Below are positions 20,148 through 24,196 of a DNA stretch of 64,000 nt, one piece after another. Under the pieces are notes generated by a model. It was not told where the DNA came from. It was given only the letters and a program-made list of their open reading frames with translations, and searched no databases. Source of the DNA: an uncultured bacterium (lineage in GTDB: Bacteria; Krumholzibacteriota; Krumholzibacteriia; JACNKJ01); assembly GCA_963695095.1 (NCBI GenBank), contig CAVOFT010000001.1, positions 1,280,001-1,344,000 on the forward strand, given 5' to 3'. The first letter of the stretch is position 1, and each line of letters opens with the position of its first letter. A program made the translations under genes and the position numbers.

Positions 20148-20177
20148 TTGACTCTCCCCCCTGTCTCCTCCTATCAT
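20148..20177 (+). promoter_or_regulatory. Putative sigma70 promoter for the small-protein/TPR-activator pair
   Basis: TTGACT-N18-TATCAT about 63 nt upstream of ATG 20241. Confidence 0.45.
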
Positions 20178-20240
20178 TCTGCTGGCACTTGTGAAGTCGA
20201 GACAGGGCCTGTCTTTACCCTTGCCGGGAGCGCGTTTACG

Positions 20241-20582
20241 ATGAGAAGGGGCGCCACTACCTGCCTATCGATCTTCGCCCTGCTGCTCACAATCTGCTTG
20301 GGCACGGGCAACTCGACGATTCCTCCCGTCAGCGCTGGTGAACTCGTAGTTAAATCGGCTGTCCCGGTGTACTCCAATGGCGGCCCACCGGCTCCGATCG
20401 CCGGTGAAGGCGGCGGGGGCATCCCCGGCGGTGTGGGCGCTGCCGGTGAATCGGGCGATGATGATGACTACTGGGACGGGGTGAACAACGACCAGCAGCC
20501 GCCTCGCAACCAGCACGGGCTGCCCTGGCTGCTGCAGATTCTGGAATCCTGGTGGCGGGCGGGGTCTTGGATTTGGACCTAG
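20241..20582 (+). CDS. Small (113 aa) secreted hypothetical protein, candidate signalling pro-peptide
   Basis: GGGAG SD; N-terminal MRRGATTCLSIFALLLTICLG hydrophobic signal; Gly/Pro-rich linker; SGDDDDYWDG; Trp-rich tail LPWLLQILESWWRAGSWIWT. Confidence 0.7.
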   Translation: MRRGATTCLSIFALLLTICLGTGNSTIPPVSAGELVVKSAVPVYSNGGPPAPIAGEGGGGIPGGVGAAGESGDDDDYWDGVNNDQQPPRNQHGLPWLLQILESWWRAGSWIWT

Positions 20583-20639
20583 GAAGAACGCCGTAGCCAT
20601 CTTCCTCAGAGTGCGTCCACCCCACACGAGGACGAATCG

Positions 20640-23624
20640 ATGAGAGAGCCGGATCGCAGCAGTCCCCAGGAGTTCCAGCAGCAGGCAGGCCGCTCCCCCC
20701 TGCCTAGCCTGGCCAGCTCCACGGACACAGAGGCCATGGGGGATTTCCACTTCTCCTCGGAGAACTACACCCTGGCCCTGGAGTACTTTGAGCAAGCCTA
20801 CCAGCGCGCCCAAGACGAAAGCTCCACGGCGGACCTCTGGCGCCTCGCCTTCAAACTTGGCGAGTGCTATCACCGCAAGGGCCTGGACAATGAATCCCGC
20901 GAGTGGTTCTTCCTCGCGCAGTCCCGGCTGAAGGGCCGCGAGAGCAGCCTGGAATACGGGCTCGTGCTGGACCGTATCGGCATGGTCCACCTCTACACGA
21001 GCAGTCCGGAAGAGGCCCTGCAGTACTGCTTCCAGGCCTACGAGTTGCTGAAGAACTCCTCCCTGCACGCCGAAGTCGCCGAGAACCTCAATCGCATCGC
21101 CATCATCTACTCCCGGCTCGGCTACCCGCGCGAGGCCGAGGAGTTCTTCACCGACGCGCTGGTCACCTATCGCCGCATCGACAACCATCGCGGCGTCATC
21201 GGCGCCACGATGAACCTCGGCTTGCTCAAGAAGAATGCCTGCGACTTCGACGGCGCCCTGGCCCTGTTCAACAAGAGCATGGCGCTGGCCAAGCAGCAGT
21301 CGCTGCACGGCGTGCGCATCAGCTTGCTCTTGAACATCGGCATCGTCTACTTCAAGCAGGGGCGGCATCGGGACGCCTCGGAGATGTTCATCCGCGCGCG
21401 CCGGCTGGCGCGGGAAGCGGGGGACGAGGGCAAGGCGACACGGGCGACCAGTTCGCTGGGCCGCGTCCAGATCCAGCTCGGCAACTATCGCCGGGCCGAG
21501 CAGCTCCTGCTCGAAGGTCGCGTGCTGGCGGAGAAGAACCGTCAGCAGCGCAGCTTGGCGCTGGCCGACGAGTTCCTCGGCGAGTTGGCGGAAGCGAAGG
21601 GCGATCTCGAGGCGGCGCTCGCCAACTACGAGCTCGCGATCGATCTGGCCAAGCAGTTGGCGCCCAAGGGCGACATCGTGGTCGAGCTGCTGCAGCGGAT
21701 CGCGCGCGTGCAGCTCGGCCAGGGGCTTCCCCTCGACGCCGTCCGCACGGCCGAGCGCGGCCTCAAGCTCACGGAGACCAACGGCGAGATCTTCGAGATC
21801 CCCCACCTCTACCGTACCCAGGCGCGGGCTTGGCTGCGGCTGGACAGCGGCGACAAGGCAGAGGTGGCCTTCCGCAACGCCCTGCATGCCTTCCAGGCCA
21901 CCCAGGACCGCAGCGCGGAGGATCAGACCAAGCTGGAGTACTGCGACTTCCTCTTCTCGCGGCGCGCGCTCGAAGATGCGCTGCGGGCGCGGAAGCTGCT
22001 CGAAGACCTGCTCCAGCATCGTTGCGACGAAACCTGCGATCACTTCCGCTTCCGCACCAGTCTGCTCCTGGCCCGGGTGGAGAACTGGCTCGGCGACCTG
22101 GACCGCGCCCTTCTCGCCGTCTTCGATGCCGAGGGCTATCTGCCGGCCGATGCCGCGGAGGCCGATCGGGAAGAGCTGGATCGCGTCCGCGGCGAGGTGG
22201 AGCAGCGTAAGATCGCCCAGGGCGGCAGCGGCTTCGGCTTCCTGCCCGGAGCGCAAAGGAGCTTCCTCGGTGGTCGTGAAGACCTGCCCGAGGAACTGAA
22301 GAGTGCCTGGCTCAGCTTGTTCGAGTTGTGCGATGCCGATGCCGGCTGCCTCTGCATGGATGGCGCCGACGGCGGCCCCTTCGAATTCCTCGCGGGCATG
22401 ACCCGCGGAGAGGGCGAGGACCTGCGGGAAAGCGCGGTGGGCGGCGATGCCGAAGAAGGCCCGGCATCCTCGCTGCTCTTCCAGCCGCTCGTCCACTCCG
22501 GCAAGGAAATGGGTTTCCTCTGTCTCTGGCGCAAGCGTCCGGGGGAGGCGGCGGGCTTCTCTCGCGAAATGGTGCGCTATATCGCCGGCTTCGCCCGCAT
22601 GGTCACCTTGATCGCCTACCAGGAGCGGGAACGGCTGGCGCGGCGGGCGGTGCTGCCCCCCGATCTGCCCGAAGCGACGCAGCACATCATCACTCGCGAT
22701 CCTGGCATGCTCGAGCTCCTGCATCTCACCGGCAAGGTGGCCGAGACCGATGCCTGGGTGCTGCTCAGCGGCGAGACGGGCACGGGCAAGGGCGTGCTGG
22801 CCTATGCCATTCATCGCATGAGCAATCGCCGCGATCGACGCTTCGTGCATGTGAACTGCGCCGCCTTGCCCGAGGAACTGCTCGAGAGCGAGCTCTTCGG
22901 CCACGTGCGCGGCTCCTTCACGGGCGCCATCAATGACAAGGCGGGACTCGTCGAGGAAGCGAACGGCGGCACGCTCTTCCTGGACGAAGTCGGCAAGACC
23001 TCGTTGAGGATGCAGGCGAAGCTGCTGCAGTTCCTCGACACGCGGGAGATCCGCCGCGTAGGCGCGAACGACAGCATCCCCGTGAACGTGCGCCTGATCA
23101 CGGCGACGAAGACGGACCTGAAGGAGCTGGCCCGCGAGGGCCGCTTCCTCGAGGACCTCTACTACCGCCTCAACGATTTCCCCCTGCGCATGCCGCCTCT
23201 GCGCGAGCGCAGGGGGGACATCGCGCTGCTGGCCGAGTACTTCTTGGATCGCTACGGCGCCGAGTTCGGCAAGCGACTGCGCGGGATCTCGCAGCGGGCG
23301 ATGCTCAAGCTGGAGAGCCACGCCTGGCCCGGCAACGTGCGCGAGCTGGAAAAGGTGATCAAGCGTGCGCTGTTGCTCAGCCTCGACAATCAACCGCTGG
23401 CCAGCGACGCCGTTGCGCTGGAAGACGCGCTCCAGGGAGCGCACGGCGGGCAAGTGCAGAGCGTCGACCTGAACCTCAAGCGCCAGGTGGGTGAACTCGA
23501 GCGCCAGTTGGTGGTCGAGGCGCTCGAACAGGCGGACTGGAATCGCACGCGGGCCTGCCGGACCCTGGGCATCAGCTACCCGACACTCTTGCAGAAGATC
23601 CGCAAGTACGCGCTCGACGACTGA
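20640..23624 (+). CDS. TPR-repeat sigma54 enhancer-binding protein (TPR array, possible GAF-like linker, AAA+, HTH)
   Basis: About 500 aa of TPR-like helices (ALEYFEQAY, LDRIGMVH, LNRIAIIY, LLNIGIVY, SSLGRVQ); GETGTGK, ESELFGHVRGSFTGA, LFLDEV, WPGNVREL; HTH WNRTRACRTLGISYPTL; no receiver or TM segment. Confidence 0.9.
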   Translation: MREPDRSSPQEFQQQAGRSPLPSLASSTDTEAMGDFHFSSENYTLALEYFEQAYQRAQDESSTADLWRLAFKLGECYHRKGLDNESREWFFLAQSRLKGRESSLEYGLVLDRIGMVHLYTSSPEEALQYCFQAYELLKNSSLHAEVAENLNRIAIIYSRLGYPREAEEFFTDALVTYRRIDNHRGVIGATMNLGLLKKNACDFDGALALFNKSMALAKQQSLHGVRISLLLNIGIVYFKQGRHRDASEMFIRARRLAREAGDEGKATRATSSLGRVQIQLGNYRRAEQLLLEGRVLAEKNRQQRSLALADEFLGELAEAKGDLEAALANYELAIDLAKQLAPKGDIVVELLQRIARVQLGQGLPLDAVRTAERGLKLTETNGEIFEIPHLYRTQARAWLRLDSGDKAEVAFRNALHAFQATQDRSAEDQTKLEYCDFLFSRRALEDALRARKLLEDLLQHRCDETCDHFRFRTSLLLARVENWLGDLDRALLAVFDAEGYLPADAAEADREELDRVRGEVEQRKIAQGGSGFGFLPGAQRSFLGGREDLPEELKSAWLSLFELCDADAGCLCMDGADGGPFEFLAGMTRGEGEDLRESAVGGDAEEGPASSLLFQPLVHSGKEMGFLCLWRKRPGEAAGFSREMVRYIAGFARMVTLIAYQERERLARRAVLPPDLPEATQHIITRDPGMLELLHLTGKVAETDAWVLLSGETGTGKGVLAYAIHRMSNRRDRRFVHVNCAALPEELLESELFGHVRGSFTGAINDKAGLVEEANGGTLFLDEVGKTSLRMQAKLLQFLDTREIRRVGANDSIPVNVRLITATKTDLKELAREGRFLEDLYYRLNDFPLRMPPLRERRGDIALLAEYFLDRYGAEFGKRLRGISQRAMLKLESHAWPGNVRELEKVIKRALLLSLDNQPLASDAVALEDALQGAHGGQVQSVDLNLKRQVGELERQLVVEALEQADWNRTRACRTLGISYPTLLQKIRKYALDD

Positions 23625-23662
23625 GCAGCAAGGCTCTCTCGGCGACGCGCCGGCTATTCCGC

Positions 23663-23690
23663 GGGCCCGGTCACACCGGGCCCTTCTGCT
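23663..23690 (+). terminator. Putative terminator hairpin after the TPR activator
   Basis: GGGCCCGGT-CAC-ACCGGGCCC followed by TTCTGCT. Confidence 0.5.
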
Positions 23691-23899
23691 TGGCGCTCAC
23701 AAGCTCGTTGCGTAGCGGCAGCCGACCTCCACCTTTTCTCCCAGGCGCCAAAGCCTCTGGCGACTTGAGCTTGCCCGCTCTAGCCGCCGGCAATCTAAAG
23801 AATCTTGCGCAAGTCCATGTCGGTGTACTCTGGCGCTGCGAATCGCCCATGCAAGTGGCTCATTTGCAAGGGGATAAATCCCCCGATCGCGAGCGGTTA

Positions 23900-23915
23900 T
23901 GGCATGCTCCCTGCA
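23900..23915 (+). promoter_or_regulatory. sigma54 (-24/-12) promoter
   Basis: TGGCAT-GCTCC-CTGCA, GG-N10-GC exact; preceded by palindromic, more AT-rich elements at 23790-23885. Confidence 0.75.
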
Positions 23916-23925
23916 GTTGAACGCT

Positions 23926-24196
23926 TGAAGTGAGGAGGGCGCCAGGCTTGGCAGGTATGAGGCTCTTTCCAAGCTTCCTCGAGGGACTCGAACGGAATTG
24001 ATAGGGGAAGTCAGCCGGATTCGATGTCGTTCCTCGGGCCGATCGGAAGCGTCCGATGAGTCGATTGACTCGGTCCTTGCGTGAAGTGTGGGGCAACACG
24101 CCAGGGCAATCGGCGAGTCCGATCGAAGGAGATGTACTCCTCTCCTTGATGCTGAGATGTGCGAGGCAGGAGGGCGCAAGCCCTCTTGCCTTTTTT
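23926..24196 (+). ncRNA. Candidate sigma54-dependent structured RNA (~270 nt), family not recognised
   Basis: Bounded by the sigma54 promoter and an intrinsic terminator; no long ORF fits inside; at least five short hairpins. Confidence 0.55.
24164..24196 (+). terminator. Rho-independent terminator
   Basis: AGGCAGGAGGGC-GCAA-GCCCTCTTGCCT stem with GNRA loop followed by a T-run. Confidence 0.85.

Follow-up and report, generated by a model that had tools for sequence, protein, structure and literature searches.

The window analysed here is a 64,000-nt stretch of the 3.64-Mb genome assembly of an uncultured bacterium of the phylum Krumholzibacteriota (G000:C1:1280001-1344000). Between positions 20148 and 24196 of the window, all on the plus strand, lies a compact locus in which genes for a small exported protein and a cytoplasmic sigma-54 activator with a tetratricopeptide repeat (TPR) sensor are followed by a sigma-54 promoter (termed P1 below) and a structured non-coding RNA of ~271 nt. 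We are almost certain that these parts constitute a real module. Proteins 67-96% identical to the TPR part have generic names throughout and, where the organism is given, belong to 'Candidatus Krumholzibacteriia/-ota bacterium'.

We compared 39 loci from 39 genomes of eight families, comprising the window, 19 relatives and 19 further relatives. Two of the 40 relatives first gathered were omitted, namely G029 (gene split across two contigs) and G038 (64% complete, with the place of the orthologue not listed). One locus (L020, from G011) holds only the N-terminal part of the activator, where the contig ends, and counts of P1 are based on the 37 loci with a full-length activator and downstream DNA. 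Alignments were made of 10 RNAs of family f1 (A1), 20 small proteins (A2) and the activators (A3), and a covariance model (R1) was built from 10 f1 RNAs. For the distribution of the sensor, a TPR profile was searched against 201 genomes of the phylum, 125 of them of good quality.

The operon is preceded by a sigma70-type promoter at 20148-20177, with TTGACT (20148-20153) and TATCAT (20172-20177) separated by 18 nt. It is the sole site of its kind found in 19800-24600, where shuffled sequences lead us to expect 0.3. A regular expression search located TTGAC-N16-19-TAnnnT 91-170 nt 5' of the small open reading frame (ORF) in 18 of the 20 relatives' loci, and the remaining two (L011 and L013) have a variant operon promoter, TTGACT...CATATT. 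The small ORF (20241-20582, ATG at 20241 and stop at 20582) encodes a protein of 113 amino acids (aa), of which residues ~1-33 are predicted to be a signal peptide on the basis of n-, h- and c-region features and AXA-like cleavage sites; the maximum 19-residue Kyte-Doolittle hydropathy is 1.84, at residues 4-22. The mature protein (~80 aa) is acidic (isoelectric point 4.1) and rich in glycine and aspartate; it contains a GDDDD motif and ends in a Trp-rich C-terminal tail. Searches of Pfam and NCBIfam assigned the protein to no family. The nearest clusters in the ESM Atlas are unnamed ~110-aa proteins labelled Eiseniibacteriota, which with scores of 0.82-0.85, under the 0.9 level, provide a lead only.

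A signal-peptide ORF of 91-119 aa occurs directly 5' of the activator gene in 38 of the 39 loci. Each starts with positive charge and has a hydrophobic stretch, and the cleavage sites are mostly AXA-like. The distance from the stop of the small ORF to the activator start is 57 nt in the window and 35-71 nt across the 19 loci measured. Invariant among the 20 sequences of A2 are only G72, D73, D75 and W104, which make up a GDxDD-type acidic motif and a tryptophan in an amphipathic tail; the Trp-rich C-terminal tail varies among close relatives. A sequence-only reading of the window had described a secreted protein of 113 aa behind a sigma70 promoter and 57 bp before the activator, and had named conservation of this small ORF as a synteny test. 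All of these elements are present after small corrections to coordinates, and the small ORF accompanies the activator in 39 of 39 loci, one of them frameshifted. In that locus (L035, G036:C9:880900-887100) the ORF is broken by two frameshifts, either as an assembly error or as a pseudogene, and it is intact in the closest relative, L036.

The second gene of the operon (20640-23624) encodes a 994-aa sigma-54 activator with Pfam matches to TPR repeats, Sigma54_activat, AAA_lid_14 and HTH_8. The TPR superhelix (residues ~29-519, 20724-22196) is followed by a GAF-like middle part (residues ~530-680), the AAA+ domain (residues 683-849, 22686-23186; PF00158, E 9.5e-65), the lid (residues 855-920) and the C-terminal Fis-type helix-turn-helix (HTH) domain (residues 951-990, 23490-23609). 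The middle part is so described from GAF domains precomputed in Pfam for more distant homologues, and has no such match in the activator itself. The sigma-54 machinery is intact: rpoN is encoded in the genome (DNA-binding domain E 2.1e-64), and Walker A (GETGTGK at 711), the GSFTGA loop (at 758) and Walker B (LFLDE at 779) are conserved. Eighteen of 19 orthologues have G[AS]FTGA as the loop, and L017 has GAFTNA. With its AAA+ sigma-54 domain, its C-terminal HTH, an rpoN gene in the same genome and a -24/-12 promoter, the protein has the features of an enhancer-binding protein. Pfam matches include no receiver domain and no transmembrane-like stretch was found (maximum 19-residue hydropathy 1.13), which bears out the earlier description of a TPR-AAA+-HTH activator lacking both. 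The activators of genus g3 (L015, L018 and L019) are only ~853-869 aa long and lack the whole GAF-like part, while the TPR, AAA+ and HTH parts, the small ORF and the RNA are retained.

The AlphaFold2 model of residues 1-520 (predicted local distance difference test score 90.4) comprises 25 helices that form a continuous TPR superhelix behind a disordered head of 19 residues. Matches listed by Foldseek for this model were TSK, LGN/Pins, OGT and consensus or designed TPR proteins; a check against Rap, NprR and AimR had been proposed from sequence, and no RRNPP receptor is among the matches listed. In a profile search of solved chains, kinesin light chain was matched at E 9e-24 and Pins at E 3.6e-20, and RapI at just E 2.5e-7. 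LGN/Pins superhelices (PDB 6hc2, 3sf4, 4a1s, 3ro2, 5a6c) rank among the sensor's best matches by structure and by profile. They are eukaryotic scaffolds with 14-20% identity to it, and the resemblance shown is in fold class rather than in descent or function. Superhelices of the LGN/Pins type clasp long extended peptides in their inner groove. Orthologues of the sensor were identified in 191 of the 201 genomes of the phylum sample, including 124 of the 125 good-quality ones, mostly as one copy.

A terminator-like hairpin (23663-23683; 9 pairs, 8 of them G-C, with a weak T tail, TTCTGCTT) follows the activator gene. P1 lies ~275 nt past the gene at 23900-23915, with the sequence TGGCAT-gctcc-CTGCA (GG at 23901-02, GC at 23913-14). 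Both had been noted in this order before, and a search for P1 in relatives, proposed as part of the synteny test, gave a strong result: a -24/-12 promoter occurs on the same strand 190-370 nt past the activator stop in 36 of the 37 loci. Thirty-two of these fit TGG[CT]A[CT]-N5-NTGC and four are variants; L027 has different DNA at this place. The whole 3.64-Mb genome, both strands counted, holds just 52 copies of the strict pattern TGGCA[CT]-N5-NTGC, and given this rarity a promoter at the same position in 36 of 37 loci is beyond chance.

The spacer between hairpin and promoter holds palindromes, as had been reported; just one of them has support across families. With up to one mismatch allowed, the palindrome TAAAG-N2-5-CTTTA is seen in 12 of 36 loci where 0.9 would be expected, and most copies lie at -103 to -129. 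The window has a degenerate copy of the form TAAAG-N3-CTTTA, TAAAG-N3-CTTGC at 23796-23808 (not assigned to a strand), 104 nt upstream of the -24 element, which is a candidate enhancer. Other exact inverted repeats differ from locus to locus, and no enhancer common to the loci was identified among them.

The RNA is predicted to extend from 23926 to 24196 and to end in an intrinsic terminator (24165-24196), with a stem at 24165-24190 (GGCAGGAGGGC-GCAA-GCCCTCTTGCC) followed by TTTTTT at 24191-24196 (-24.4 kcal/mol). Its structure is supported by covariation. In A1 (321 columns), RNAalifold predicted 52 pairs, 27 of which show compensatory changes, and 92.6% of cells are paired, compared with 82.7% in shuffled alignments (none of 500 as high) and 38-53% when partners were slid. 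All five covariation measures exceed those of 500 of 500 shuffles and of every slid control. The fold of the window RNA has an energy of -125.6 kcal/mol (z -3.73). A long-range helix that pairs CUUGGC with GCUGAG closes the RNA and covaries, compensatory changes are also seen in the terminator stem (helix 8), and the core of the conserved apical loop, AAGUGUGGGGCAA, is invariant. At 57.9% G+C, the RNA gene is below both the activator gene (66.3%) and the window (70.5%).

No conserved ORF was found in the RNA; the longest ORFs differ among relatives in frame, start and length. Searches of 18000-27000 against Rfam 15 gave no match at E values up to 1 other than a chance hit at 25479-25506, far under the gathering score, and five related loci gave none either. 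By nhmmer and R1 the RNA is single-copy in the genome. Behind P1 in the other families lies a transcript of comparable length. GUGGGG is present in 36 of 36 P1 transcripts, where it usually forms part of a hairpin as GAGGUGGGGUC. The RNA is a new, covariation-supported family, with a GUGGGG loop motif common to the phylum. The transcript beside the activator gene is non-coding and has a -24/-12 promoter ahead of it and a terminator of its own, and in this respect the earlier proposal of a sigma-54-driven small RNA (sRNA) is supported by covariation, by the lack of a conserved ORF and by the terminator.

Just before the closing helix, at 24150-24162, is a pyrimidine-rich stretch, CUCCUCUCCUUGAUG, that is identical in 6 of the 10 f1 RNAs and one base off in a seventh. 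It resembles the 3' end of 16S rRNA and might pair with ribosome-binding sites. We also considered feedback through pairing of the GUGGGG loop with the 5' leader of the small ORF and rejected it; the duplexes are no better than those with shuffled leaders (mean z 0.06, p <= 0.05 in 1 of 35 loci).

The RNA is tied to the activator by its distribution. R1 identified exactly one copy, always beside the activator, in 11 of 12 genomes of the family, including G011, which was absent from model building. The twelfth genome, G005 (99% complete, 2.2 Mb), has no copy. At its locus (L023, G005:C11:670000-676000) the activator is cut to a 534-aa TPR-only ORF from which the AAA+ and HTH domains are gone, and P1 is absent too. 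The small exported ORF and the receiver-type activator upstream are both kept. The strongest case that the activator itself, and not a neighbour, fires P1 comes from this co-loss together with the positional rule (36 of 37 loci), and from these genomic patterns we regard that assignment as very probable.

We predict a three-part, phylum-wide regulatory module that would operate as follows, and as a whole we give this mechanism somewhat more credence than doubt. The sigma70-type promoter would drive transcription of both genes. The first product would be exported by a Sec-type route as an acidic ~80-aa protein with a Trp-rich tail. The second would be a cytoplasmic enhancer-binding protein in which a superhelix of 12 TPRs and a GAF-like domain replace the receiver as sensor. 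It would bind in the spacer upstream of P1, with 23796-23808 as the candidate site, and use ATP to let sigma-54 RNA polymerase transcribe the single ~271-nt RNA, which would then act in trans as the output of the circuit. The TPR groove is predicted to bind a polypeptide and thereby gate the AAA+ motor. The pair of small ORF and TPR protein is never separated, even in G005, and for this reason the co-transcribed exported protein is the best candidate for the source of the ligand, either as precursor that has not yet been exported or as a re-imported fragment. That the small protein provides input to the sensor, whatever the route, we rate at slightly below even. A prediction of the complex between TPR residues 1-520 (with A3) and the mature small protein, residues 34-113 (with A2), gave a median score of 0.27 relative to a mark of 0.32, and speaks neither for nor against contact.

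Several observations weigh against this mechanism. Different compartments are predicted for the sensor and for the exported part of the small protein. The small protein has four invariant residues only, and it evolves much faster than its putative receptor: within the genus it is 50% and 45% identical where the sensor is 88% and 82% identical. Two further sigma-54 activators are encoded just upstream (14916-16295 and 18710-20098), and either could fire P1. The enhancer is only a candidate: the sole recurrent palindrome is found in a third of loci and the copy in the window is weak, with two mismatches. Both ends of the RNA are predictions from sequence. R1 returned nothing above the E 2 level in 28 loci of other families, and because it misses their RNAs, the evidence for homology across the phylum is limited to place, promoter and the GUGGGG loop. 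Regarding targets of the RNA, the complement of the loop, TGCCCCAC, occurs near 8 of 133 candidate starts (6.0%), compared with 5.8% for 25 permuted 8-mers, and this search yielded no target.

The small protein may instead be a co-transcribed envelope protein, or itself an output, with the TPR/GAF sensor reading a different input, for example another cytoplasmic protein or a small molecule held by the GAF-like part, and the RNA still the target of the activator. The predicted separation of the two products and the paucity of invariant residues fit this alternative, as do homologues with recognisable GAF domains and the retention in G005 of the small ORF and a TPR-only protein with no transcriptional output. 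Because G005 keeps both without the output, any joint function of the two needs no motor. However, the pairing holds throughout the 39 loci at short distance (35-71 nt in the 19 measured) and survives in G005 when the rest of the module is lost, and genus g3 retains the TPR part, the small ORF and the RNA with no GAF-like part. We consider a role of this kind somewhat unlikely.

Quorum sensing in the manner of RRNPP systems would also use the exported protein as the source of a ligand. The protein would be secreted and cut to a short C-terminal peptide, which would build up outside the cell, be re-imported via an oligopeptide permease and bind in the TPR groove, so that the RNA would be made in a density-dependent manner. 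The arrangement is suggestive, as a small signal-peptide ORF directly precedes a cytoplasmic TPR regulator in every locus. The TPR fold is of the peptide-clasping kind, and the Trp-rich tail varies among close relatives as pherotype peptides do. Binding proteins of the Opp/Dpp type are encoded at two loci elsewhere in the genome, which permits re-import and lends no support to it. However, likeness to RRNPP receptors in fold or sequence does not go past that of TPRs in general, the locus has no linked gene for a permease or a processing protease, and in a diderm host the peptide must cross an outer membrane. The mature protein, at ~80 aa and with an internal GDxDD motif, is longer and more constrained than RRNPP pro-peptides. 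The domain order differs as well: the activator has an N-terminal TPR array, AAA+ in between and a C-terminal HTH, and no RRNPP receptor is known to have that order.

PMC10075063 describes the RRNPP(A) systems (Rap-Phr, NprR-NprX, PlcR-PapR, PrgX, AimR-AimP) as cytoplasmic TPR regulators beside small signal-peptide ORFs, the likeness to our module, and as belonging to Firmicutes and their mobile elements, with a distribution that is patchy, multi-copy and often mobile. The sensor reported here is found in Krumholzibacteriota, in which it is near-universal and mostly single-copy. In the same source, 'Gram-negative' occurs just in the reference list. The proposal from sequence of an RRNPP-like peptide sensor therefore stands for the gene order, a TPR regulator by a signal-peptide ORF, and fails for fold kinship, domain order and distribution, so that it is kept as an analogy only. 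We judge density sensing of the RRNPP type to be distinctly unlikely.

A different possibility is that P1 is fired not by the TPR protein but by the receiver-type, NtrC-like sigma-54 activator encoded directly upstream (18710-20098, plus strand), fed by the histidine kinase further upstream, with the TPR protein acting elsewhere or as a co-activator. A receiver-type gene directly precedes the cassette in most loci and most families, and the locus of most families has two activators and two sigma-54 promoters. There is also a precedent, in PMC10162802, for a single qrr promoter fired by two activators in Vibrio fischeri. However, in family f3 P1 is kept in 5 of 5 loci with the receiver-type gene not within 1.5 kb, and G005 retains the receiver-type activator, yet lost P1 and the RNA along with the AAA+/HTH half of the TPR protein. 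We regard control of P1 by this neighbour as improbable, slightly more so than density sensing.

The small ORF could also be a secretion-monitoring arrest peptide, of which SecM, MifM and VemP are examples, so that export status would control translation of the activator. A small exported ORF immediately 5' of the regulated gene, a conserved tryptophan near the C-terminus and a short gap would suit such a role. However, pairing at the ribosome-binding site of the activator is 0.58, against 0.59 in shuffled controls (mean of 19 loci), and an internal conserved GDxDD motif is unexpected in a pure arrest peptide; we consider this very unlikely. Least credible of all, and hardly to be entertained, is that the ~271-nt transcript is no free-standing RNA and acts in cis, as leader or attenuator of the Alternative Complex III (ACIII) operon, whose first gene, actA, begins 140 nt further on the same strand: the transcript is closed by a strong terminator, behind which actA has its own sigma70-like promoter and ATG and hence does not take the RNA as its leader, unrelated genes follow the RNA in other genomes, and in G005 ACIII is in place with no RNA.

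The region between the RNA and actA (24301-24340, plus strand) contains this promoter (TTGACC-17-TAACTT, 24301-24329) and the start codon of actA, which is most likely ATG 24338 rather than GTG 24314. As this ATG is 8 nt past the promoter, the actA mRNA would have almost no leader. Next after actA come the genes for ActB-F, SCO1 and cytochrome oxidase. Genomes differ in what comes after the RNA: most of family f1 has ACIII there, G006 has a Clp gene, and others have a lipoprotein-like gene under a sigma-54 promoter of its own. In G005, ACIII occupies the same position, and the layout of promoter and ATG is unchanged. In G006 (L006), a -24/-12 promoter lies 732 nt past the activator stop, directly before a Clp_N/AAA chaperone gene of the ClpB/ClpA type. 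Nineteen loci outside f1 (L008, L009, L016, L017, L022, L024-L026, L028-L030, L032-L036 and L038-L040) have a second sigma-54 promoter (TGGCAC-N5-TTGCG type) 740-1130 nt past the activator stop and before the lipoprotein-like ORF. This ORF has a signal, a cysteine and the motif PP..P.GV.S.TGD, and its first 260-275 aa are without a Pfam match. Its homologue in the genome of the window (C1:2841269-2841985, minus strand) has no -24/-12 promoter.

Upstream of the cassette, a histidine kinase gene (12442-14919), a receiver-type activator gene (14916-16295), an ORF of 475 aa (17239-18666) and the receiver-type activator gene at 18710-20098 follow one another. Counting the TPR protein, three sigma-54 activators are encoded in series. 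No Pfam or NCBIfam family was identified for the 475-aa ORF.

Receiver-less sigma-54 activators controlled by a protein encoded nearby are known from PspA-PspF, NifL-NifA and HrpV-HrpS. There, a cytoplasmic partner targets the AAA+ domain; in the present module the candidate partner is an exported protein, and a fused TPR array serves as sensor. A close parallel in layout is Nla19-Pxr of Myxococcus xanthus. According to PMC5568312, its sRNA gene is directly behind the gene for a sigma-54 activator, with a 262-nt spacer that holds an enhancer and the sigma-54 promoter; the order of activator, spacer, promoter and sRNA is the same as in our module, and the RNA likewise has multiple stem-loops. 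Nla19 is a receiver-type response regulator and Pxr is 108 nt long, whereas here the sensor consists of TPR and GAF-like parts, the RNA is ~271 nt long with no Rfam match, and an exported small protein is co-transcribed.

The LuxO-Qrr system of Vibrio, as described in PMC10162802, is alike in that sRNAs encoded adjacent to a sigma-54 activator are its direct output and that more than one activator per promoter is possible. By contrast, LuxO receives its phosphate from membrane kinases that sense small-molecule autoinducers; it lacks a TPR and has no exported protein partner. On the present locus, the NCBIfam LuxO model reached 232 bits (cut-off 800). In the literature searched we found no account of a sigma-54 activator that senses through TPRs and has either an exported partner or an sRNA as output. 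The design of an activator with an adjacent sigma-54-dependent sRNA is known; the sensor, the partner and the RNA family are undescribed in that literature.

Sigma-54 activators are signal integrators whose known inputs are phosphorylation, small ligands and cytoplasmic partner proteins. A sensor built as a TPR array and linked to a small exported protein would represent a further, new class of input. The module is also tractable, being near-universal in an uncultured phylum and made of few compact parts with a single large structured RNA as output, and the RNA family merits an entry in RNA family catalogues. If the small protein is the ligand, peptide-type signalling would reach far beyond Firmicutes. 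In the boldest form of this idea, which we think unlikely though a little less so than density sensing, a Sec-exported ~80-aa protein would be the signal for a cytoplasmic TPR-gated sigma-54 motor with a large structured RNA as its dedicated output throughout the phylum, and perhaps in sister phyla too. If true, the activator would be the first of the enhancer-binding proteins to sense a protein or peptide, and the circuit would bring to bacteria with an outer membrane either the peptide-receptor logic of Gram-positive bacteria or a new means of monitoring the state of export or of the envelope.

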